Shown: positions 1,416-32,536, counted from the stretch's first letter. The stretch is DNA of 64,000 nucleotides from Promethearchaeota archaeon (GCA_019058365.1 JAHPZE010000006.1:64001-128000); one strand, 5' to 3'. The notes: generated by a model from the sequence alone, not told the origin. Numbers and translations: made by a program.

Positions 1416-2525
1416 TTGAATGGTGAAGTAATTTTTTTACATTTAAGAGATGTAGGGCGTAGTATTGATTTGAAAAGAGCAATTACAATAATTCCTGCAA
1501 TTCAAGATAAAAAAATTGTCAAGACAAAAGACACACCTTCATACGTGGATTTTCCAGACCCTTTAGTTTTAGAGGTTACTCAGAAGATATCCTCGGAATT
1601 AAAAAATATTGAAAGTATAACTCTCTTTGTTAAAGTATATGCAGAAGGTGTAATATCCTTAATTGCTAGACTTACCTTTCAAAATTTATCTTTTAAGGAA
1701 CTGCATAAATTGAGGAAAATTAACTTTCATACTTCTGATGGAAATTTTCAAATAACTAATTTTTTAGAATATCATAGTAATAAAATTTTTGAACAAATAC
1801 GAGATTGCATAAGCGAAGCGAGTTCTATATTTGAAGAATCAGAATATGAAAAATATACATTATTTTGTATAACTGATGATCTAGAGAACCCTAAAGGTTT
1901 TATTGAAAAAGAAAGAACCTATATATCATCTTTACTTATGGGAGAAAACCCAGAATTAAAACTTAGCCAAGATCAAATCAATAAAACAGTTGAATATACT
2001 TTTTCATTTTTAAATAATGATTTAATCATTTTTGATTTTGACAGATGTTTAATTATTGATCCAAATTGTGATTATGAAGATATTTTACTTGTTGTTGAGA
2101 TAGTTAATTATCAATTACTCGAATTACGTACTTTAGATAAAATCTTAGATAAAAGGCTAACAATAGCAGAAGAAGATATCCGTAAATTTTATTTTAAAAG
2201 TCAAAGCATATTTAGAAGATTTAAAAGAAAAGTTGGACGTTTAATTCAATTAAGATATGATTTATTATTTTTATTAGAAAATATTGAAAATGTCTCAAAA
2301 TTGATTGGAGATTATTATTTAGCCGGGATTTATACATATTTAGCGGATTTATTTCAACTAAAAGAATGGAGTAATAGTATAAGGCATCGCCTTGAAACAT
2401 TAGAAAATATTTATAATATCACACAGACCAATATTAATGAAAAATTTTTGCTTTATATAGAAATTCTACTTAGTTTTATTTTTATAATGGAATTTATACT
2501 ACTCTTGATTAATTACTTTTTATAA
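1416..2525 (+). CDS. RMD1/DUF155-like protein with C-terminal transmembrane helix
   Basis: 369 aa; helical C-terminal half (W..SI..RLE.LE.IY) ending in hydrophobic LLYIEILLSFIFIMEFILL. Confidence 0.55.
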   Translation: MNGEVIFLHLRDVGRSIDLKRAITIIPAIQDKKIVKTKDTPSYVDFPDPLVLEVTQKISSELKNIESITLFVKVYAEGVISLIARLTFQNLSFKELHKLRKINFHTSDGNFQITNFLEYHSNKIFEQIRDCISEASSIFEESEYEKYTLFCITDDLENPKGFIEKERTYISSLLMGENPELKLSQDQINKTVEYTFSFLNNDLIIFDFDRCLIIDPNCDYEDILLVVEIVNYQLLELRTLDKILDKRLTIAEEDIRKFYFKSQSIFRRFKRKVGRLIQLRYDLLFLLENIENVSKLIGDYYLAGIYTYLADLFQLKEWSNSIRHRLETLENIYNITQTNINEKFLLYIEILLSFIFIMEFILLLINYFL

Positions 2526-2554
2526 TTTCTAGATATCCTTATTTATAACTCAAC

Positions 2555-3766
2555 TTACAAGAAAATGTCTGATGCGGGAAAATCCTCTGTCTTTTTTGAC
2601 ATGATTTTTTCTATGGCCATGATAAAATCTTCACCCGAAATAATTTCAGAATTTCTTCTAATGGCATACATTCCTGCTTCTGTACAAATACCTTTAATGT
2701 CAGAACCTGTTGCACCTTGAGTATGAGCACTTAAATAATTTATTTCAATATTTTCTTCAATATGCAGATTTCTCATATGAACTCTAAAGATTGCTTCTCT
2801 GGCTTTTTCATTAGGAATGGGAAATTCTACTATTCGATCAAATCGACCCGGTCTTAATAAAGCTGGATCCAATATATCTGATCTATTTGTTGCCCCTATA
2901 AATTTTATGTCACCTCTTTGATCAAACCCGTCTAATTCACTTAATAGTTGCATTAATGTTCTATTTACTTCTCTATCACCTGAAGTATCATCTTGCATCC
3001 TAACAGCACCTATTGCGTCTAATTCATCTATAAACAAGATAGCAGGTGCTTTCTGTCTTGCTAAACTAAAAATTTCTCTGACATATTGAGCACCTTCACC
3101 TATGAATTTTTGAACTAATTCTGTTGCAACTACTTTAATAAATGTTGCATTTGTTTCATGAGCAACAGCTTTAGCTAGTAAAGTTTTCCCCGTTCCTGGT
3201 AAACCATAAAAAAGAACACCTTTAGGGGGTTCTATCCCAATCTTTTGGAATAATTCAGGTTTTTTCAATGGTAATTCTATTATCTCTTTAACTTCTTGAA
3301 TTTGATACTCTAAACCTCCTATATCATCATAGGAAACGCCAGTTAGACTTTCTATTATTTCCATACCCCTAACAAATGGGTTAAAATTGGAAGGTAATAG
3401 TTCCATTACGGCATAATTTCTTTGATTTAAAGCAACATGTAAACCGGGTACAAGTTTCTCTTTTTGCAATCTATTGCTAATTCTAACAATAAAACTAGCG
3501 CTAGGTGAACTATCTACAACAGCACGGTCATTATTGTCATCTAATATATCAGTTATATGTCCCGATAATAATGGAAGTTCACTTAACCGATCAATTTCTT
3601 CACGTAAACTTTTTATTTCAAATTCTGCTTTTGTTAACCCATTATTTAATAAATTTATTTCGATTTTTCTTTCTTTTATTTTTTCTTCAAGATGCCGTAT
3701 ATATGAAGTTATTTTCTCAACGTTTTCTGGATCTTTTTTACCATTTTCAATTTCTGTAGCGGTCAT
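2555..3766 (-). CDS. pan: Proteasome-activating nucleotidase (AAA+ ATPase)
   Basis: N-terminal coiled coil and OB fold, SYDDIGGL, Walker A GLPGTGKT, pore loop ELVQKFIGEG, Walker B ILFIDELD, SRH ATNRSDILDPALLRPGRFDR. Confidence 0.93.
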   Translation of the reverse strand: MTATEIENGKKDPENVEKITSYIRHLEEKIKERKIEINLLNNGLTKAEFEIKSLREEIDRLSELPLLSGHITDILDDNNDRAVVDSSPSASFIVRISNRLQKEKLVPGLHVALNQRNYAVMELLPSNFNPFVRGMEIIESLTGVSYDDIGGLEYQIQEVKEIIELPLKKPELFQKIGIEPPKGVLFYGLPGTGKTLLAKAVAHETNATFIKVVATELVQKFIGEGAQYVREIFSLARQKAPAILFIDELDAIGAVRMQDDTSGDREVNRTLMQLLSELDGFDQRGDIKFIGATNRSDILDPALLRPGRFDRIVEFPIPNEKAREAIFRVHMRNLHIEENIEINYLSAHTQGATGSDIKGICTEAGMYAIRRNSEIISGEDFIMAIEKIMSKKTEDFPASDIFL

Positions 3767-23209: not shown

Positions 23210-24616
23210 TTAACCTAAATTTCGAAAGCTAGTAATTGTCTTTTGGAGTTTCTCAAGTAAAATTTTTATTTCTGAGTTAAATTCTTTGAATGGCTCCAAC
23301 TCCGTGTTCAGTTTCTCGATTTTTTCATTCGTATTAGTTTGTAATGAAGTTATAGATTTTTCAATGCTTTTTTCAATATTTTGAGCCAATGAGTTTACTT
23401 GAGTATTTGTATTTGTTAATTTAGATTGAAGATTTTTTATCAACTCTTCGATTTGTGAATTTATTTGCGTAGTCTCTTTAACCTTTCCAGATACAGAATT
23501 AATTACTAATTCCATCTCATTTTTAATATTTGATATATGACCTTCGATGAGAGTGTTTAGATTATCAATAAGATTATTCTTTGTGGTAGAGATATCTGTT
23601 ATGAATTCTTTATTTTTTTTAACTCGAGTATCAACATAGTTAGAAACACTTTTTTTAAACTCAATTATCGTTTCATTCAATGTCATATTGAACCAATTAT
23701 CAACTTTAATTATTCCAGATGATATTGCATCCTTCATTTTATTTACTGATTTACTAATATACTCAGTGCCTTTAGATGTTCCCTGATTTACATCTTTAAT
23801 CCAATCTCCAATTTGAGTTTTGACAATATTCATGAACATATTTGAGATTTTTTCTGTTCCTTGTTGTAAACCTAAAGCGACTGAGGTTAATTCAGGATAT
23901 TCTACAATTTCTTCTTCAACTGTCTGTGTTTCTTCTGTTTTTGGAATTTCTTGCAATTCTCCAAGAGGTTGTTCAACAAATTCATTTATTTCCTTAATAA
24001 GAATAGGATTTTTTTTTTGGAAATCCTCTGAAAATTTTTGCACCCACTTAAAATACTCTAATGAGTTTGGAATTTCAATTTTAAATGGTACCATATGATA
24101 TTTATCAGCTTTAGTATAATCATCTAATCTATAAATTTCAAATCCAAGATTCCCATCCTTCCCCATGAGTGTATGATCAAAAACTATACTAAAACCATAA
24201 GGAAATTCCTCCTTTTGGAAATACTGTAAATTTACTAAATCACTCTCACTGAGGTACAAACCCCAAGAAGGGTGAGAATGGTAATATCCTATTAAAGCAG
24301 ATGAATATTTTTTACTGATCTCAGTAAATAAATCATAATCATCTTTATCAAATCCGATTTCTGCTTTATCTCCATGTGTTATAGGAACAGCATTTTCTAC
24401 AAAGACTTTTTCTTCGATAGTATCATATTTTCCTACACAGACCCCCATAACTTCTATACTTTGTTCTAATTTATCATTACCAAAACGTAGAACATGAGTA
24501 AGCATGTTTCTAAAAGCTTCCTTCTTAATGAATATATTTCCTTTTTCAGATTTACTTGTATCATCAAAATTTTTTTGATTTATTTTTTGATTAGATTTTT
24601 TTTCAACCACTTTCAC
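23210..24616 (-). CDS. JAMM/MPN+ metalloprotease with long helical/coiled-coil C-terminus
   Basis: IEVMG, GYYHSHPSWGLYLSESD (HxH-x7-S-x2-D); 4-nt GTGA overlap with the upstream paralogue. Confidence 0.88.
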   Translation of the reverse strand: MKVVEKKSNQKINQKNFDDTSKSEKGNIFIKKEAFRNMLTHVLRFGNDKLEQSIEVMGVCVGKYDTIEEKVFVENAVPITHGDKAEIGFDKDDYDLFTEISKKYSSALIGYYHSHPSWGLYLSESDLVNLQYFQKEEFPYGFSIVFDHTLMGKDGNLGFEIYRLDDYTKADKYHMVPFKIEIPNSLEYFKWVQKFSEDFQKKNPILIKEINEFVEQPLGELQEIPKTEETQTVEEEIVEYPELTSVALGLQQGTEKISNMFMNIVKTQIGDWIKDVNQGTSKGTEYISKSVNKMKDAISSGIIKVDNWFNMTLNETIIEFKKSVSNYVDTRVKKNKEFITDISTTKNNLIDNLNTLIEGHISNIKNEMELVINSVSGKVKETTQINSQIEELIKNLQSKLTNTNTQVNSLAQNIEKSIEKSITSLQTNTNEKIEKLNTELEPFKEFNSEIKILLEKLQKTITSFRNLG

Positions 24617-26094
24617 TCAACCCTCTCTGTTTCCAATTTTTTTATCTTAGCTAATAAATCTTGATTTTCTTTTCTTAAATCTGTGAGATCATTTTGGAGC
24701 GTCTTGATTTCAACTTTTTGTGTTTCCAATTTGTTTTGTAGTGAAGTTTTTGAGCTCTCTAGTAATATTATAGCAGCTTTTAAATCTGATAGAAAGCTTT
24801 TTGATTCTTTATTTAAATTAATAAAAGTTCCTATGATTTTATTAACATTTTTTGTGAAAGTTCCAGATAAATCTTTTATAATATTATCAAATTTTTCTGG
24901 AATTGTGTATTCTATTGAATTAAGGCTTTTAGATAAATTTTCTATAATATTACTTTGTTCATCCAAACTTTTAGAAGATGCTAAACCTAATTTATTTATA
25001 TTAGTTAATTCATCTATTTGGTTATTAAATTGAATTATAATACTGTTGATATTTTCCTTTAATTTTTCTTCAACTATTGATTTAAATTGTCCATTAAGTT
25101 CAGTCTTGATATTATCAAATAGATCTTTAAAGATTTCTTGATCAGAATCAAATTCTTCAAATTTATCATCAATGTACATGTCCAATTCGTTTAATTTTTC
25201 CTTAAAGGAAAATTTAAAATTTTTTTGAAGATTAGAAATCCCCTCACTTAACCTGTCTTTTATTGTAATCACATCTTTTCTTATTTGTAAATTATTCTTA
25301 ACAGTAGTATTGATCAAATTTTCACTCCAAGAATTAAGAAATATGATAAATGGTGCGATAACAATTTCTAAGAACTTTGTTAATTCTGTATTGAGTGCAG
25401 ATAAGATTTTAGTAGAATCTAATTCCGGTTTCTTTGTAAAAATTTGGCTTTCACTTGGAAATGCAATATCTCCAAAAAGATCGGGCATTTCATTAATTTC
25501 CAATATAGGAGGCTCTTTTGAGTGAATATTATTTATTAAATTGATTAATTTTAAATAATATTCAATACTATCAGGAGGTGCTACAGACGCTTTTACCTCG
25601 TGATAACCTGACATTTGACCTTTGGCTGGATTATCTAATCGAAATGTACGAAATCCTAAATCTCCTGGTTTTTCTAAATAAGCATGGTCAAAAACAATTC
25701 CTATGGCACTAGGGTTTGGAGTTTGCCAACCAAGTTGATTACGTATATCTGTTGAAGAAAAGAAAATATCCAGTTCGGGGTGAGAATGGTACCACCCACA
25801 ACTAAACCAGTTTTTTTCAGCATAAGCAGCATCAACCATAGAAAATGTTACATAATCTTCTGGGGCAAATGCAACTTCTATCGCACCACCGTGTGAAATG
25901 GGAATAGCATCTTCAATTATAACATCTCTAATTCCCTTCTTATCTGGTTCACCTTCACCTAATGATCCAATAAGTATTCCCATTACTTCTCGGTACTGCC
26001 TTTTATCTCTTGCTTTATTTCCAAAACGAAGGACATGTAGAAGCATTTTATAATAAGCTTCTGGTTTAATAATAACAGTTTTTTCAGAAGTCAA
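24613..26094 (-). CDS. JAMM/MPN+ metalloprotease with long helical/coiled-coil C-terminus
   Basis: REVMGILIG, GWYHSHPELDIFFSSTD, GIVFD. Confidence 0.9.
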   Translation of the reverse strand: MTSEKTVIIKPEAYYKMLLHVLRFGNKARDKRQYREVMGILIGSLGEGEPDKKGIRDVIIEDAIPISHGGAIEVAFAPEDYVTFSMVDAAYAEKNWFSCGWYHSHPELDIFFSSTDIRNQLGWQTPNPSAIGIVFDHAYLEKPGDLGFRTFRLDNPAKGQMSGYHEVKASVAPPDSIEYYLKLINLINNIHSKEPPILEINEMPDLFGDIAFPSESQIFTKKPELDSTKILSALNTELTKFLEIVIAPFIIFLNSWSENLINTTVKNNLQIRKDVITIKDRLSEGISNLQKNFKFSFKEKLNELDMYIDDKFEEFDSDQEIFKDLFDNIKTELNGQFKSIVEEKLKENINSIIIQFNNQIDELTNINKLGLASSKSLDEQSNIIENLSKSLNSIEYTIPEKFDNIIKDLSGTFTKNVNKIIGTFINLNKESKSFLSDLKAAIILLESSKTSLQNKLETQKVEIKTLQNDLTDLRKENQDLLAKIKKLETERVE

Positions 26095-26320
26095 TGATAT
26101 TCACGATTTATGTTTTAGATTTAGTTTGTTAATGATCTATATATAGTTTAATTGGTTTTAAATATTTGAATAAAAAAATTGAAAATTATATCTGGTCTTC
26201 TAATTTATTCTGTATTGAGTCTTCTTTTTCAGAGTAAATTTTGATTCTCTTTCCTTATTCTCTTAAATTATTAAATCAAATAAAAAATAAAATAAGAATT
26301 AAAACAAATTTATTAAATCA

Positions 26321-26977
26321 TTAATCATGAGGTAATGGTTTACCACAGAAAGGACAGAATCGGAAGCCTAAGTCTTTACCACAATGTGGACAAAAAGAAC
26401 CTTCTACTCCTACTGGTGCTTTTTCCTCAACACCTTCTTTTGGTATTGAAGGTAACTCTCTTTTTGTTTTAAGAGTTGTAGCCGATGAGGCAGTACTAGG
26501 CAGTACCTCTTGTTTTGCCATCACTCTTTCCTTAAAAGCTTGTCTTCGTTCTTCTTCAAGTTCTTCTTGCGTTTTAGTACCTTCTGTTTTAACCCAACCT
26601 TGAACCTTGGGTCTTTTCAATTCACTTTCAGGAACCCTTTCCAATTCTACTTCTTTAGTTTCTGATATTGGAGCAACTACTTTTCTCTCATCCTTCTTCT
26701 GCAGGGCTTGTTTTACAAGAGCTTGAGTTGTTTTCATTACTTGATGGGGATTAATATTAGGGATTGCTACAGTCCTAAGAACCCAGCCTACAATAATATT
26801 TTGATTTGGAAAATCGCCTTCGACATCCTCATCTTTAAAAACATAAGAATCAATAATATCTTTCCCTTTTAACATGCGAACAGCCCATTTCTCATTAATT
26901 AATCCTAATTGCAGTCTATAAGATGTTCCAGGTACGCCAAGTTGGCTCGTTAATGGTTCGAATCCTCTCTCTGTCAC
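26321..26977 (-). CDS. Hypothetical protein with charged linker and C-terminal zinc ribbon
   Basis: CPHCG..CPFCG at the C-terminus. Confidence 0.7.
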   Translation of the reverse strand: MTERGFEPLTSQLGVPGTSYRLQLGLINEKWAVRMLKGKDIIDSYVFKDEDVEGDFPNQNIIVGWVLRTVAIPNINPHQVMKTTQALVKQALQKKDERKVVAPISETKEVELERVPESELKRPKVQGWVKTEGTKTQEELEEERRQAFKERVMAKQEVLPSTASSATTLKTKRELPSIPKEGVEEKAPVGVEGSFCPHCGKDLGFRFCPFCGKPLPHD

Positions 26978-27222
26978 TTCAAATCACTTTTTTTCACTAA
27001 ATTATATGAGATCAGTAATATTATAATGATAAATTTCGAATTTAAATTATTATTTATTTTTAAAATTTATCTTAAAGTTAAAAATTTTATCTGATTGATT
27101 AAGTTGATCGATAGTTAAAATGTTTAATTCTTATATTTTTGGTTTGGGATTAAAAACAAATAAATACAAATTATTCTATTATCTTGTAAAATACCATTGT
27201 TGAAAATAACAGGATTTTTATC

Positions 27223-28209
27223 ATGACTGTAATAATTCCAAAGAATGATTATTTAACTTTAGTGGCCGCAACTATTAGATTTGCTAATGCTCGTATTCCA
27301 AAGGATGATTGGTTAGAAGTTAGTGGCATCTTTACTGGAAGAAATGAAGGAGATGATGTATTCATAACAGAATGTTACCCCATCATGCATCAAGAATTAG
27401 ATAAAGATGCGGTAATTGATCAATATAAATGGAATGATGAAGATTATGAAGCTCTTTATATCATCGATGATGAAGCATTTTCAAGAGATCCACCTGAGTT
27501 TGTGGTCGGATGGTGGCATAGTCATCCTGGCTTTATTTGAACTGGATTTACCAGACTTAGCTAAAAGGTAATGATGAGTCACATCGATATTCGTACTACT
27601 CTATCATATCAACAAAATAATCCTTTGGCAATCTCACTAGTTTTTAATCCTACGAGACTTATTCGCCAGATCGAAGTAGCAAACAAAAAAGGAGATCCAG
27701 ATATACAACTAAAAAATGATCCTGGGTTTAAAATATTCAGGTTAGATGATATTAATCGAGGTCTTGAAGCATCTTATCATGCTATAGACTATAAAATTGA
27801 AGGATACGATAGTATGGAGCAATTGGTTACTTCAACTCAGAAATTTATTATCGATATTACTAATTTCTTCCCTAAGAATAATGTTCCACAAACTTATGAG
27901 AAATATATTGATGATAGAATAACTCAATTAAATTCATTATTCCAGGGAACTGAAGAATATTTAACCACATTGACCTATCGTGGTGAAAAAAAGAGAATCC
28001 CAGAAGTTATAGAAAATCAAAGCAAAGAAATTAGGAAATTTGTAGCTGAAACAATTATAAAGATTGAAAATATTAAGGAATTCATGAATTATTTAGAATA
28101 TAAAGAAAGAGAAACATTAATTCCACAAATCAAGGCTATAATAAACAAATGGGATGAACAAGTTGTTGGATTAGATAAGAGAATAAAAGAACTAAAGAAG
28201 AAATTTTAA
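27223..28209 (+). CDS. JAMM/MPN+ metalloprotease, intron-interrupted: join(27223..27534,27565..28209), 318 aa
   Basis: The two track ORFs share a frame. Removing 27535..27564 gives WLEVSG...GWWHSHPGF|KVMMSHID, an exact JAMM motif. Confidence 0.85.
27535..27564 (+). other. Candidate 30-nt archaeal-type (bulge-helix-bulge/loop) mRNA intron
   Basis: atttgaactggatttaccagacttagctaa; central helix GGCU(27529-32)/AGCU(27559-62), 3-nt bulge AA^A, exon helix CCU/AGG, 5' site UU^A, internal hairpin CUGG-AUUUA-CCAG. Confidence 0.78.
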
Positions 28210-28333
28210 CCCTAATAATTTTCATCTTATTTTTAGTTTTGATAAATTTTTATTTGATTACGCTTTTTTTTGATTAATTATACGATTATTTTTAAAAAAA
28301 ATATCAGAGAAATTTTAGAATTTAGTCATTATC

Positions 28334-30538
28334 ATGAGAAAAATTAATTTTCCTTTTACAGCGATTCTTGGTCAAGAGAAAATGAAGATGGGGTTAATCT
28401 TGAACGTTATTGACCCTCAAATAGGTGGTATCTTGTTAACTGGTCAACAAGGCACTGGAAAAAGTACTGCTGTAAGATCTCTCGTAGAACTGATGCCTCA
28501 AATTGAAATTGTTGCGGGTTGTGAATTTTCATGTGATCCTAATTCAGATATTGATGATTTATGCCAAAATTGCATAGAAAAAAAGGAAAAAGAGCAAATA
28601 ACTACAGAATTCCGTGATATGTGGCTTGTAAATTTGCCTTTAGGAGTCACAGAAGATATGGTTTGTGGGAGTCTATCTATAGATAAGGTATTAACTGAAG
28701 GAATAAGAGCTTTACACCCTGGGTTACTCGCGAAAGCAAATAGAGGTATTTTATATGTAGATGAAATTAATTTACTCCAAGATCATATCGTTGACGTTCT
28801 TCTAGATTCTGCAGCTTCAGGTGTAAATATCATAGAAAGAGAAGGAATCTCTATATCGCATCCTTCAAGATTCGTTCTGGTTGGTTCAATGAACCCAGAA
28901 GAGGGTGATTTAAGACCACAAATAGCAGATCGCTTGGGATTAGAAGTTAGGATTAAAGCCCCTAGAGATTCAGAATTAAGAGCAGAAATAACTAAAAGGG
29001 TTATAGAATTTGATGATCATCCAAAAGAATTTATTAAAAATTTTGAAGATGAACAAGAAAAATTAAGACAACAAATCCTTAATGCTCGTGATATTTTAAA
29101 GGAAGTTCAAATCCCTAGTTCTGTATATGAATTTGTATCCAAAATTGTAAATGAGTTAGAGATTTTTTCTCAAAGAGCAGATATTACTTTTATTCGATGT
29201 GCGAGAGCTCATGCTGCTTTAAATAGTAGAAAGGATATAGTTGAAGAAGATCTTAATGTGGCTATGGATTTAGTATTCGAACATAGAATTCAATCACTTC
29301 ATTATGAAATGACACCGGTAGAAATTAAAGCAAAAATAGCTGAAGTATATGGCAAAATAAGAGAGGCTTATGAAAATACAAAAGTACTCCAACCCAATAG
29401 AGAAACAGAAGGCCCTTTAAAGCATTCAGATGAACATCAAAAAGAGTTTAAACGTCAATCTGTTGATCCTGATAAAGTTGACATCCCAGAATCCCAAGAA
29501 CAGAAATTACCCCCTCCAAAATACCCTGATAATAAAAAAAGAAATCCTAAACCCGCGGGAGGATGGAAAGTAAAGAATATTCCTTTTGATGATGATCTTA
29601 GATTTTTTGAAGATAGACAAGTGGCTATGCCATTTATATATAAGATGGAAAAGAAAATGACCTCTATCTTAGATAACATAAAAAAGGACAGAAAGATATC
29701 TGATTATGGTGGAAGAGGGATCGGTAGGAGAATCAAAATATCCTCATCCCAAAAGGGCAGATATGTATCTTACAGATCACCTATACGTGAACAACCAAAA
29801 AGTATTGCTTTAGATGCTACCATTAGGAATTATTTAAAAAATATTGTATATAACGAAACTGAAATTGATTTCCCTATTCATTTTAATAAATATGATTTAA
29901 TGGATAAAATCTATGAATATCGCGCACCTTTAGCTCTCTTCTTTGTTTTAGATAGCTCAGCATCAATGTATTACGTAATAAAACAAATGACAGACGTTAT
30001 ATTATCATTACATCGAGAGGGATATAGAAAGAGAGATAAAATAGCTCTCATTGTATTTCGAGGTAAGGATGCTATTGTATTACAGAATCCCACTGTAAAT
30101 TTTAACATGGCTATTAATAAATTGAAAAAAATTGAAGGTAAATCATATACTCCAATGGCAGCAGCTTTAAAGAAGGTATCTGAGCTAATAAAAGTTGAGA
30201 AATTGAAGGATAGAAATATTATACCTATAGTCTTTATATGTAGCGATTGTGGAGCAAATATTTCTGTTAAATATCCTGATTTAATAGCCCAAATTGAAAC
30301 GGATTATTCTTTAATTACAAATGAATTAAAAGAATTAACAAAAAAATTATCAAAACAAAATATCCATATGGTTGTGCTAGAACCAAAAAAATCCTATGCG
30401 ACACACGCTCTTGGTGTACACACATATTCAGCAGAACATATTAAAAAAAACTTTAAAAAATACGCGAATGCTCAGATTTATAAGTTTAACAAATATAATC
30501 CCGACTCTTTAATATTAGAATTGAAAAAAATTCTCTAA
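28334..30538 (+). CDS. Mg-chelatase ChlI/ChlD-like AAA+ ATPase with C-terminal vWA domain
   Basis: FPFTAILGQ, GQQGTGKST, PGLLAKANRGILYVDEINLL, MNPEEG; Pro-rich linker; MIDAS DSSAS..T..D. Confidence 0.88.
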   Translation: MRKINFPFTAILGQEKMKMGLILNVIDPQIGGILLTGQQGTGKSTAVRSLVELMPQIEIVAGCEFSCDPNSDIDDLCQNCIEKKEKEQITTEFRDMWLVNLPLGVTEDMVCGSLSIDKVLTEGIRALHPGLLAKANRGILYVDEINLLQDHIVDVLLDSAASGVNIIEREGISISHPSRFVLVGSMNPEEGDLRPQIADRLGLEVRIKAPRDSELRAEITKRVIEFDDHPKEFIKNFEDEQEKLRQQILNARDILKEVQIPSSVYEFVSKIVNELEIFSQRADITFIRCARAHAALNSRKDIVEEDLNVAMDLVFEHRIQSLHYEMTPVEIKAKIAEVYGKIREAYENTKVLQPNRETEGPLKHSDEHQKEFKRQSVDPDKVDIPESQEQKLPPPKYPDNKKRNPKPAGGWKVKNIPFDDDLRFFEDRQVAMPFIYKMEKKMTSILDNIKKDRKISDYGGRGIGRRIKISSSQKGRYVSYRSPIREQPKSIALDATIRNYLKNIVYNETEIDFPIHFNKYDLMDKIYEYRAPLALFFVLDSSASMYYVIKQMTDVILSLHREGYRKRDKIALIVFRGKDAIVLQNPTVNFNMAINKLKKIEGKSYTPMAAALKKVSELIKVEKLKDRNIIPIVFICSDCGANISVKYPDLIAQIETDYSLITNELKELTKKLSKQNIHMVVLEPKKSYATHALGVHTYSAEHIKKNFKKYANAQIYKFNKYNPDSLILELKKIL

Positions 30539-30558: not shown

Positions 30559-31809
30559 ATGCATAAAATGGTTAAGAAATCAAATTCCATACTTGTTGTT
30601 GGATTTAATACACGTCCTTTAGCTTTTTCATTGAATAAAGCAGGTTATAATATATACGCAGTAGATTTCTTTGGTGATTTAGATCTCTATCCATATGTAG
30701 ATGATTATATTATTGTAATAAAAGCTTTGAAAAGTAATTATAACTCTTTAAAAGAGAAATATAGTATATTCTTAGCTCAATTTGCTTTAGAATTGCATCG
30801 CAAACATAGAAATGTAGATTTTTTATTAATAGGTAGTGGTTTAGATGATGCCTATAAAGAAAGGGAAAAAATCTTAGATGAAATTAAGAGTTTTAATACG
30901 ATTAGCGTCAATAATGAGTTACAAGTTATTAAAAAGTCAAGAGATATAAAATATCTTCTTGAATTTCTTAAATCCCTTGGTTATAAGGTTCCTTTATCTT
31001 TTTCTTTTGAAAATTTTCGACTTTTAAACGCAAATCTGGAATATCCCTTTATATTAAAAAAAAAGAGAAGTGCAGGTGGCATAAATGTCTTCAAAGTTGA
31101 GCATGAAAAGAAATTAACGTCTCTAATACGTATTTTAGAAAAGAAAAAGTTTATTCCGTCAGAATGGTTAGTTCAAGAATACATTGAAGGAATTCCCGTT
31201 AGTTGTACAGTAATTTCTGATGGAAAAGAGTGTGAAGTCATATCCATAAATCGTCAAATCATTGGTGAAAAGTTTCTTTATGCTCCAAAAGATTTTATGT
31301 ATTGTGGAAATATCGTGCCTGCTGGATTGTCAATTGATGAAGAAAAAATTATATCTGAGATTTCGATGCTTCTAACAAAAGAATTAGGTCTACAAGGGAT
31401 TAATGGGTTTGACTTTGTTTTAAAAGATAATTATCCTTATTTTATGGAATGTAATCCAAGAATTCCTGGATCAATTAGAGCTTCAGAATCTGTTCTGAAC
31501 TTGAATCTTTTAGATTTACACATAAAATGCTTTATACCTAATGAATGGAAAAACATTAAAAAATTGATTAAATCTACGATACCTAAAACTTTTGCTACAA
31601 AATTGGTATTTTTTGCTCCAAAAGATATAGAAAAAAGAATTTTATCAAAAATAAATAATCTTGAATTTGTTTATGATAAAACTGAGCCAACTAAAGATGT
31701 TTTAAAAGGGGAACCTTTATGTACTGTTTTATATGTTGCTAAAGATTATCTTGCATCTTTTAATGGAGCGAAAAAGATTATAAATGAAATCGAGAGAATT
31801 ATTGGATAA
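30559..31809 (+). CDS. ATP-grasp carboligase-like protein
   Basis: AVDFFGDLD, SAGG, VQEYIEG, FMYCGNI, GINGFDF, MECNPR. Confidence 0.8.
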   Translation: MHKMVKKSNSILVVGFNTRPLAFSLNKAGYNIYAVDFFGDLDLYPYVDDYIIVIKALKSNYNSLKEKYSIFLAQFALELHRKHRNVDFLLIGSGLDDAYKEREKILDEIKSFNTISVNNELQVIKKSRDIKYLLEFLKSLGYKVPLSFSFENFRLLNANLEYPFILKKKRSAGGINVFKVEHEKKLTSLIRILEKKKFIPSEWLVQEYIEGIPVSCTVISDGKECEVISINRQIIGEKFLYAPKDFMYCGNIVPAGLSIDEEKIISEISMLLTKELGLQGINGFDFVLKDNYPYFMECNPRIPGSIRASESVLNLNLLDLHIKCFIPNEWKNIKKLIKSTIPKTFATKLVFFAPKDIEKRILSKINNLEFVYDKTEPTKDVLKGEPLCTVLYVAKDYLASFNGAKKIINEIERIIG

Positions 31810-32536
31810 TAGCTTTAATTTTAGCAATGTAAGATCCTAATTTTCTCTCGTCAGACTCGGGAACAGCAAGTGCTAAGACTCTGTTTTCATCTAAATCGTG
31901 GATTATAACAGAACCATTTTCCCCTCCTATAATACAGTATTCCATATGACTTTCTAGTAATACTCCAGATAAATTATATAATGCAGCAACCATAGCTGAA
32001 AGAATTGGTTCAGGCATAGTTGATTGTATCTTAATTGGTAATCCATCTTTGGTAATAATTGCTAACACTAGAGTATTTGGTATCGCTCTTTTCAAACCTT
32101 TAAATATTTCTTCTTTAAGAATATCTGATGTTTCTGCAATAGCGGTTATTTGTAGGCTTAATTTTTGTAGTCTATTAATAAATGAATCTAATCCTTCAAG
32201 TTCAGCTAACTCTCTATTTAAATAACTTATCATTGTAATATGTTCTGTTAATATGGAGAGGACAATTTTTTCCTTACCAATAATTAAGTTATAAGAAACA
32301 TCTTGATTTAGTGAATCTCTTAACATTTTAGATGAAAGGTATACAAGGCTACTATTTGCTGCTGTAATTTCACCCATTGTCATTTTAACTTCTTTTTTAA
32401 ATTTGCTTGCTATTTTTGTTCCCTCAGCGGTTCCAACATTGATTCCCAGAATAGCTGGTGCTGAATCAAGCTCTTTTTCTATTATTTCAGATACATCTGA
32501 TTCTAATTCTTCGATTATTTTTTCTTGCTTTTCCAT
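31799..32536 (-). CDS. Tandem roadblock/LC7-domain protein
   Basis: Two ~115-aa units: VGTAEGTKIAS..ITAANSSL and IITKDGLPI..LSAMVAAL..IIGGENG. Confidence 0.75.
   Translation of the reverse strand: MEKQEKIIEELESDVSEIIEKELDSAPAILGINVGTAEGTKIASKFKKEVKMTMGEITAANSSLVYLSSKMLRDSLNQDVSYNLIIGKEKIVLSILTEHITMISYLNRELAELEGLDSFINRLQKLSLQITAIAETSDILKEEIFKGLKRAIPNTLVLAIITKDGLPIKIQSTMPEPILSAMVAALYNLSGVLLESHMEYCIIGGENGSVIIHDLDENRVLALAVPESDERKLGSYIAKIKAIIQ

Follow-up and report, generated by a model that had tools for sequence, protein, structure and literature searches.

The pairing of an MPN+ with an MPN- protein is characteristic of the ubiquitin machines of eukaryotes, namely the lid of the proteasome, the COP9 signalosome and BRISC. 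In BRCC36-KIAA0157, the MPN- partner activates the MPN+ enzyme, and the helices that follow the two domains form a joint bundle (PMC4579573). Here we describe a gene block in a 64,000-nucleotide (nt) stretch of a Promethearchaeota archaeon genome (GCA_019058365.1, JAHPZE010000006.1:64001-128000; "the window") that encodes three JAMM proteins, JAMM1, JAMM2 and JAMM3, each with an MPN domain and a helical C-terminal tail. The sequence points to JAMM1 and JAMM2 being a pair of the MPN+/MPN- style, and the JAMM3 gene is interrupted within its catalytic motif by what appears to be a genuine archaeal intron.

An intron in the cbf5 pre-mRNA of Crenarchaeota was reportedly described by Watanabe in 2002. 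In 2020, cbf5 was given as the sole reported coding-sequence case, together with an intron in a 5'-untranslated region of Haloferax (PMC7714728). A 2026 preprint on the tRNA introns of Asgard archaea (10.64898/2026.10.13.758758) does not treat protein genes.

Organization of the locus

The window corresponds to G000:C7:64001-128000 in our genome set, where G000 is a genome of 4.74 Mb in 54 contigs with about 28% G+C. Relatives of its proteins come from metagenome-assembled genomes labelled Promethearchaeota or Lokiarchaeia by their sources. The block comprises two conserved, family-specific gene units, the first formed by JAMM2 and JAMM1 and the second by JAMM3 and the genes for an AAA-vWA and an ATP-grasp protein. 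A reading made from the sequence alone (the sequence-only reading) had listed three tailed JAMM/MPN+ genes, a zinc-ribbon gene (ZnR) and a ChlI/ChlD-like AAA-vWA gene, all of which are present:

JAMM1: 23210..24616, minus strand; 468 amino acids (aa), an MPN domain and a helical tail of about 270 aa.
JAMM2: 24613..26094, minus strand; 493 aa, an MPN+ domain and a helical tail of about 300 aa.
ZnR: 26321..26977, minus strand; an N-terminal alpha/beta domain of about 95 aa, a linker in which short motifs are conserved, and, at the C-terminus, a zinc ribbon (CxxC...CxxC).
JAMM3 exon 1: 27223..27534, plus strand; 104 codons, ending ...WWHSHPGF.
JAMM3 intron (putative): 27535..27564, plus strand; 30-nt bulge-helix-bulge with in-frame TGA and TAA.
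JAMM3 exon 2: 27565..28209, plus strand; starts KVMMSHID... and leads into a helical tail of some 130 aa.
AAA-vWA: 28334..30538, plus strand; ATPase resembling a ChlI/ChlD fusion, with Pfam domains Mg_chelatase, AAA_lid_2 and VWA_2.
ATP-grasp_3 ligase-like protein: 30559..31809, plus strand; Pfam PF02655, 106 bits, co-directional with JAMM3 and the AAA-vWA gene.

Synteny was assessed by mapping the window proteins onto 20-kb stretches around JAMM3 from 40 genomes, representing 13 genera of one Lokiarchaeial family (f1). The block is kept almost always in this sample, so the lack of conserved synteny that the sequence-only reading had named as its possible undoing was not what we found. JAMM3 and the AAA-vWA gene adjoin in 38 of the 40 loci, with a median gap of 141 nt, and the ATP-grasp gene follows the latter in 35 (median distance 63 nt). 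The order JAMM3, AAA-vWA, ATP-grasp is kept even where the first unit lies elsewhere (L050-52, L078). The JAMM3 unit stands about 20 kb from JAMM1 and JAMM2 in G003 (genus g2) and far away from them on the chromosome in G044. This separability argues for two units rather than one.

All three JAMM proteins score above the cut-off of Pfam JAB (PF01398, 22.5 bits), with 35.7 bits for JAMM1, 42.6 for JAMM2 and 36.9 for exon 1 of JAMM3. The E...HxHx7SxxD motif is present in each (HSHPSWGLYLSESD, HSHPELDIFFSSTD and, across the interruption of JAMM3, HSHPGF-KVMMSHID); in JAMM3 the catalytic Glu and HxHx7SxxD are complete only once positions 27535-27564 are removed. The closest solved relatives of the three MPN domains are Rpn11, CSN5, BRCC36 and the Caldiarchaeum Rpn11 (E 1e-9 to 1e-5), in agreement with their earlier description as eukaryote-type MPN+ proteins.

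Matches to the tails were limited to noise of the coiled-coil or apolipoprotein-like kind and to the repeats of giant proteins, and the tail of JAMM2 retrieved only its own family from the ESM Atlas (scores 0.75-0.78). Full-length tailed relatives came from family f1 only (14 of 14); the other 23 families sampled held short MPN proteins only. A profile search of 1.84 billion representatives returned about 60 clusters of 430-520 aa matching over domain and tail, and the named hits were all Asgard. G000 encodes six MPN+ proteins overall, and the set of tailed MPN proteins is expanded in family f1.

Two further MPN+ paralogues with an intact HxHx7SxxD and long C-terminal regions were noted in this genome (G000:C12:33457-33801 and G000:C33:97664-97972), one with a helical, repeat-rich tail in a frame of 560 aa, the other with a coiled-coil tail in a frame of 383 aa. 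Separately, three giant unnamed proteins of 2,468-3,188 aa (P0237, P0260, P0269) match the JAMM2 tail profile (residues ~220-467) 12-17 times each; the tail is thus a helical repeat unit that is also found in very large proteins.

JAMM1 and JAMM2 as a candidate MPN+/MPN- pair

JAMM1 and JAMM2 share about 31% identity across both the MPN domain and the tail, which identifies them as tandem paralogues. In 31 of 33 loci their genes adjoin within 400 nt of each other, and the median gap is 52 nt. The GTGA overlap reported earlier for the window is real: on the minus strand, the TGA stop of JAMM2 overlaps the GTG start of JAMM1 by 4 nt at 24613-24616.

The active sites of the two proteins have fared differently. 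In JAMM2, the E, HxH, S and D residues are intact in 35 of 35 genomes. The JAMM1 motif is intact in only 7 of 34 genomes, all of them of the window's genus and including G000, and is degenerate in the other 27, of which 5 carry Gln in place of Glu and 22 have lost zinc ligands. The patterns of decay are many and differ between relatives. Together with the constancy of JAMM2, this indicates repeated independent loss in one partner only.

The structure of a JAMM2-JAMM1 complex was predicted with a score of 0.62, against 0.00 for the best of three controls (own alignments A3 and A4). This mark is attained by 58 of 80 solved complexes and by 2 of 110 mismatched pairs. Contact agreement between runs was at least 54%, and the partner predicted local distance difference test (pLDDT) value was at least 62. 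The predicted interface involves the N-terminal helices, residues 171-196 of JAMM2 facing 180-206 of JAMM1, and the tails (253-312 facing 272-331).

These data point to JAMM1-JAMM2 being a pair in the MPN+/MPN- style that would have been duplicated independently of the eukaryotic pairs, as the restriction of tailed full-length relatives to family f1 suggests. Since JAMM1 is MPN+ in G000 and the range is restricted, we do not file the pair as a member of the eukaryotic ones. The first unit most likely provides a heterodimeric metallo-isopeptidase with the eukaryotic MPN+/MPN- architecture, in which we infer that the two proteins bind each other. JAMM2 would supply the active site, and JAMM1 would be a paralogous scaffold partner docking by its N-terminal helix, by the stretch that follows the MPN domain and by the beginning of the helical tail; its own site is still intact in G000. 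Near-constant adjacency, repeated degeneration of one partner and the complex prediction are in line with the proposal that MPN proteins act as a pair here, as far as JAMM1 and JAMM2 are concerned; a catalytically dead partner is not seen in G000.

A bulge-helix-bulge intron in the catalytic motif of JAMM3

JAMM3 is found in 133 of 135 family genomes. In the window it appears as two open reading frames (ORFs) in the same frame, 27223-27540 and 27571-28209, with an in-frame TGA (27538) and TAA (27562) between them. Uninterrupted orthologues (L001, L003, L007) are 316-317 aa long, and the spliced window product would have 318 aa. Intron-less orthologues read continuously through HPGF-K(V/I)MM; in the DNA alignment, the window exceeds them by precisely 30 bases (27535-27564), which stand between GGCTTT and AAGGTA. 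Contigs of the same species (JAMM2 97% identical) from three separate JGI metagenomes have the insert as well; the sediment samples that yielded this species are JGI 3300031360, 3300031257 and 3300031652. A second copy was not detected in the 4.7-Mb genome (up to 6 mismatches; blastn-short), and a mobile-element origin was dropped because the insert is unique there.

In archaea, the splicing endonuclease cuts the bulge-helix-bulge motif between the second and third nucleotides of each bulge. The fold of the region comprises a central 4-base-pair helix of GGCU (27529-27532) with AGCU (27559-27562), the 3-nt bulges UUA (27533-27535) on the 5' strand and AAA (27563-27565) on the 3' strand, and an outer helix between the exons. 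Canonical cuts land after 27534 and after 27564, which are the boundaries derived from homology, and restore both HSHPGF-KVMMSHID and the spacing of HxHx7SxxD. The motif is as described in 10.64898/2026.10.13.758758.

About 12 of the 53 species of the window's genus are interrupted at the same residue, and the intron occurs in none of the other 12 genera. In eleven species its length is 29, 30, 31 or 32 nt and in most cases not divisible by three. Most intron-bearing species have the textbook hBHBh' form, with inner helices such as AGAGC/GCUCU and AAAACG/CGUUUU; it is canonical in G037, G055, G064, G070, G081 and others. In the alignment of 11 sequences, the central helix is paired in every sequence, with the compensatory variants GGUU/AACU and GACU/AGUU. 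Double changes occur in 8 pairs, of which 6 belong to the inner helix and the rest to the central helix, where 2 of 4 pairs are compensatory. The covariation score was reached by 0 of 500 shuffles, and sliding the partners by 1-3 columns lowers pairing from 83% to 24-47%.

After in-silico splicing, 10 of the 11 copies are open over 314-319 codons, and the eleventh has 262 codons, shortened by the start-codon rule of the script. The ratio of non-synonymous to synonymous substitution rates (dN/dS) between intron-bearing species is 0.06-0.17, a sign of purifying selection on the spliced frame. Within the species, JAMM3 shows 9 synonymous and 5 non-synonymous codon differences and no indels. Among intron-less sequences, the catalytic motif is intact in all 34 rows, with Ser replaced by Thr in three more.

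The exact position of the insert, its length range in eleven species, the covariation and the dN/dS values support the earlier description of JAMM3 as intron-bearing, and the interruption would be a real archaeal bulge-helix-bulge intron. G000 encodes RtcB (567.6 bits) and two EndA paralogues (103.5 and 72.6 bits), as expected for a two-subunit enzyme; two-subunit EndA accepts relaxed motifs (PMC5829648). The EndA genes lie at C26:34764 and C12:101662, and that of RtcB at C35:26226. Splicing of JAMM3 in vivo, which we infer from these sequences, would then proceed as follows. The JAMM3 pre-mRNA would carry the 30-nt intron inside HxHx7SxxD, the two-subunit EndA would cut it after 27534 and after 27564, and RtcB would join the exons into ...HSHPGF-KVMMSHID.... 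Translation of the unspliced message would end after 105 residues.

A quick IQ-TREE tree of the gene places the species with the intron at scattered positions between intron-less sisters of the one genus. This suggests either that the intron is old and was precisely lost several times or that it was transferred by recombination. Its presence in only this part of one genus means that the intron is no part of the general working of the system: it is a lineage-specific feature, not a conserved control of a complex. The suggestion that the third JAMM subunit is "controlled by splicing" is therefore left as speculation.

Three other interrupted genes were seen in relatives. The JAMM3 copy of L049 (G083:C2:11966-13200) covers only residues 127-318, contains an internal stop and looks like a genuine pseudogene, unlike the intron-bearing copies. 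In L103 (G123:C75, minus strand, 1501-3732, near window position 29355), the AAA-vWA orthologue of another genus is interrupted after ...EVYGK by an insert of 30 nt that includes an in-frame TAA. This insert shows an AGAG/CUCU hairpin and what may be a relaxed bulge-helix-bulge built on a CGG/CCG helix, a motif that is not in the minimum-energy fold, and may be a second mini-intron in the block. Finally, the CobN match of a sister species (G047:C26:71255-74431) is full-length except for one in-frame TAA; it could hold a mini-intron or be a broken gene.

The AAA-vWA protein and its tie to JAMM3

The AAA-vWA protein has intact Walker A and B motifs and a vWA domain with the DxSxS metal ion-dependent adhesion site (MIDAS) motif. 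An alternative to our reading takes it as a plain subunit of cobaltochelatase or Mg-chelatase and the ATP-grasp protein as a metabolic ligase, both being bystanders to the JAMM genes. The protein scores 591 bits with TIGR02442, 394 with BchI and 331 with BchD, its identity across genera (74-79%) is that of a housekeeping protein, G000 does have CobN, and homologues from outside the family (up to 45% identity) have no JAMM3 within 1.5 kb. All three scores are, however, below the curated cut-offs (779, 467 and 500 bits, respectively). Moreover, the CobN gene of G000 is on a separate contig, where it is immediately preceded by a different ChlID-type paralogue (694 bits) that is only 34% identical to the AAA-vWA protein. 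Of 61 family genomes with a completeness of at least 90%, 20 gave a CobN match and 41 did not, and those of the latter that were sampled (such as G062, G017, G124 and G089) retain the AAA-vWA gene beside JAMM3. The persistence of the JAMM3, AAA-vWA, ATP-grasp order where the rest of the block is elsewhere also speaks against bystanders. We regard the chelatase alternative as unlikely, though a serious contender.

The sequence-only reading had stated that it would fall if the AAA-vWA protein grouped with true chelatases beside cobN; the cobN-adjacent gene being a different paralogue, it survives on this point. Because the AAA-vWA gene is kept by JAMM3 where CobN is not found, the protein would be a chelatase-derived ATPase with a CobN-independent role in family f1. 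Its putative tie to JAMM3 is one of synteny only. The second unit is a separate co-directional one, in which JAMM3 is the always-intact MPN+ enzyme. No NCBIfam equivalog was reached by the ATP-grasp protein.

Ubiquitin-like proteins as candidate substrates

Searches for ubiquitin, E2 and ThiF/E1 families gave no match on the window's contig. Such matches were confined to contigs C12, C16, C34, C45 and C50, consistent with the earlier remark that no ubiquitin, E1 or E2 gene is nearby. A classical archaeal ubiquitin operon with JAB, E2, E1 and ubiquitin-like genes lies at C34:126-131 kb, and further ubiquitin-like, E1 and E2 genes are present in G000. Inspection of C34:124000-132000 (L092) revealed an Rpn11-like JAB in a 282-aa frame, an E2, an E1 and several ubiquitin-like ORFs; a gene for a ubiquitin-like protein lies at C34:128741. 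This operon is a likely source of substrates for the extra JAMM proteins, and the substrates of the JAMM2-JAMM1 pair would likely be conjugates or precursors of ubiquitin-like proteins encoded elsewhere in G000.

Prokaryotic JAB domains have several roles unrelated to ubiquitin. The tailed JAMM proteins could accordingly be peptidases or structural coiled-coil proteins with another substrate, such as a peptide tag added by the ATP-grasp protein. The block without ubiquitin, E1 or E2 genes, the ATP-grasp ligase in the JAMM3 unit and the nature of the tail matches, as well as those established roles, are in keeping with this. Set against it are the proximity of the MPN domains to Rpn11, CSN5 and BRCC36 and the presence in G000 of a full ubiquitin-like system and six MPN+ proteins, and we consider it rather improbable.

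One assembly or two units

The sequence-only reading joined all three JAMM proteins, ZnR and the AAA-vWA protein into one hetero-oligomeric isopeptidase machine with a splicing-regulated supply of JAMM3. What lies behind a single complex is synteny: the block is contiguous in most of the sampled genomes, and ZnR and JAMM3 diverge from a shared 245-nt AT-rich spacer. Eukaryotic MPN complexes do hold vWA subunits, namely Rpn10 and MERIT40 (PMC4579573 for MERIT40), but the vWA domain is fused here to a chelatase-type AAA+ module, unlike in those proteins. The JAMM3 unit stands apart in genus g2 and in G044, and only some species of a single genus have the intron. We therefore find the single machine quite improbable.

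That JAMM3 is a pseudogene or split gene, with the insert unremoved, bypassed by ribosomes or separating halves translated on their own, is very improbable indeed: the two in-frame stops, an ATG after the insert and the truncated copy with an internal stop in G083 are outweighed by an insert kept at 29-32 nt in 11 species, mostly out of frame, between open exons with dN/dS of about 0.1, by a bulge-helix-bulge shape maintained through compensatory changes with structural cuts at the homology boundaries, by a break inside the zinc-binding motif, which is a poor split site, and by the lack of matching take-off and landing codons for bypass.

Our explanation as a whole, with two units, a JAMM2-JAMM1 pair and an intron that is spliced, is on balance the probable one, with good support for the reading of paired MPN proteins and for the intron. 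Several observations weigh against it. The JAMM2-JAMM1 prediction may have passed because the model recalls solved MPN heterodimers (Rpn8-Rpn11, CSN5-CSN6, BRCC36-KIAA0157). As JAMM1 keeps E, HxH, S and D in G000, the MPN+/MPN- label is not strictly apt there. Taken as a single sequence, the intron region has a minimum-energy fold that does not surpass those of shuffled sequences (z -0.57), so that the intron case rests on the comparison between species, and the inner helix by the 5' bulge is degenerate in the window's lineage, which gives the relaxed hBH-L form. The chelatase-model scores of the AAA-vWA protein are strong, and it may still serve a chelatase in CobN-bearing genomes. Synteny within one family partly reflects shared ancestry and is weak functional evidence. 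Finally, nothing ties the JAMM proteins to ubiquitin over another substrate.

Neighboring genes

Three further genes flank the block:

P820: 20308..22770, minus strand; polytopic membrane protein with about 10 predicted transmembrane helices (residues 87-440) and a 380-aa cytoplasmic tail.
P98: 22905..23201, plus strand; small conserved protein, convergent on JAMM1.
Roadblock/LC7-like protein: 31799..32536, minus strand; Pfam Robl_LC7 24.5 bits, convergent on the ATP-grasp gene.

P820 lies beside P98-JAMM1 in 28 of the 40 loci. Its helices were counted by hydropathy scan, and it has a weak PadR match in Pfam. The model of its tail (pLDDT 63) shows a helix-helix-helix-strand-strand unit, for which Foldseek gave weak matches to the winged helices of PadR, LmrR and TFE (E 0.01, probability 0.99). 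P98, which has no family match in Pfam or NCBIfam, is found in 30 of the 40 loci at a median of 22 nt from JAMM1, with P820 next to it. Judging from orthologue N-termini, its true start is probably the second Met (22926). The co-conserved membrane protein P820 and the small P98 may, on a weak argument, place the enzyme at the membrane. The Roadblock-like gene (31 of 40 loci) is a conserved neighbor with no apparent link to the JAMM genes.

ZnR is found in 36 of the 40 loci, with a mean column identity of 55% (alignment A5) and weak zinc-ribbon Pfam matches at its C-terminus. Its first ~95 residues, which begin GFEPLTSQLG...GTSYRLQLG, are among the most conserved of the block. The N-terminal domain was modelled with pLDDT of about 90 as four strands and two helices. 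Foldseek against the PDB gave no fold match below E 0.08, and the best hit of a wide VIA-align search (Z 6.6) was noise, with PH/EVH1-like rows at Z 4-5. The string GGTTCGAATCC at 26947-26957 was considered as an RNA element and dropped, as it is coding sequence within the conserved ZnR N-terminus.

No known RNA or tRNA was detected in the 64-kb window with ARAGORN and Rfam. ARAGORN called only 30 tRNA genes in G000, a 100%-complete genome, 19 of them intron-bearing and none in the window; so few and largely intron-bearing calls fit what is reported of Asgard archaea, whose tRNA genes are heavily interrupted. PADLOC found no known defense system in the block; its matches were confined to generic JAB ones and to coiled-coil noise (LmuB, ZorA tails).

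Comparison with known systems

The AAA-vWA protein shares AAA+, AAA lid, linker and vWA with MIDAS, as well as strong hidden Markov model scores, with ChlI/ChlD (BchI/BchD) and with the ChlID-fusion "putative cobaltochelatase" of TIGR02442. It differs from these chelatases in scoring below their cut-offs, in lying away from cobN, in being kept without a CobN match and in its synteny with JAMM and ATP-grasp genes.

The cbf5 intron (Yokobori 2009, PMC2738675) resembles that of JAMM3 in being a coding-sequence bulge-helix-bulge with patchy gain and loss that would be removed by the tRNA splicing endonuclease. The putative JAMM3 intron differs in its gene, its Asgard phylum, its position in a catalytic motif and its length of only 29-32 nt. 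Bulge-helix-bulge introns in archaeal coding sequences are documented in print for cbf5 only (PMC7714728, PMC2738675). The JAMM3 intron would be a second, well-supported case, in Asgard archaea and within a catalytic motif, and would mean that the tRNA-splicing machinery is able to process mRNAs in these organisms. It is a long shot that this Asgard lineage independently built a eukaryote-like MPN machine, with a stalked MPN+/MPN- pair on a membrane winged-helix protein and a third MPN+ protein with a vWA-AAA+ partner, splicing-gated in some species. If so, gating of JAMM3 by EndA and RtcB would be an archaeal counterpart of unconventional splicing of the HAC1/XBP1 style.

The best solved relative of JAMM2 is the Rpn11-like deubiquitinase of Caldiarchaeum subterraneum (E 2e-9; PMC6043591, PDB 6FJV), an archaeal MPN+ enzyme that acts on archaeal ubiquitin. 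That enzyme is short and encoded inside a ubiquitin-E1-E2 operon, as is its copy in G000 (C34:126164), whereas JAMM1-3 are extra tailed paralogues outside any ubiquitin operon. Rpn11-Rpn8 of the proteasome lid and CSN5-CSN6 of the COP9 signalosome are alike in being among the best solved relatives, in their MPN+/MPN- logic and in their C-terminal assembly helices. Here, PCI-domain partners, a proteasome base and a cullin context are absent, and tailed relatives occur only in family f1.

The likeness to BRCC36-KIAA0157/Abraxas of BRISC and BRCA1-A (PMC4579573) lies in an MPN+ enzyme with a paralogous MPN partner, there usually inactive, and in contacts made by the MPN domains and the coiled-coil helices that follow, reminiscent of the predicted JAMM2-JAMM1 interface of N-terminal helix, post-MPN segment and tail starts. 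BRISC and BRCA1-A contain the vWA protein MERIT40, whereas the vWA domain here is fused to a chelatase-type AAA+ module. The tails of about 300 aa are far longer than in the BRCC36 complexes, sequence similarity is weak (E 1e-5), and there is no UEV partner. In addition, JAMM1 is intact in G000, and the pair would have been duplicated within one Lokiarchaeial family. The pairing logic of the eukaryotic enzymes may thus recur in an Asgard family by way of tandem duplication, with the site of one partner lost repeatedly and that of the other never. JAMM1 and JAMM2 would then offer a natural series on the evolution of a pseudoenzyme partner, in the closest archaeal relatives of eukaryotes.

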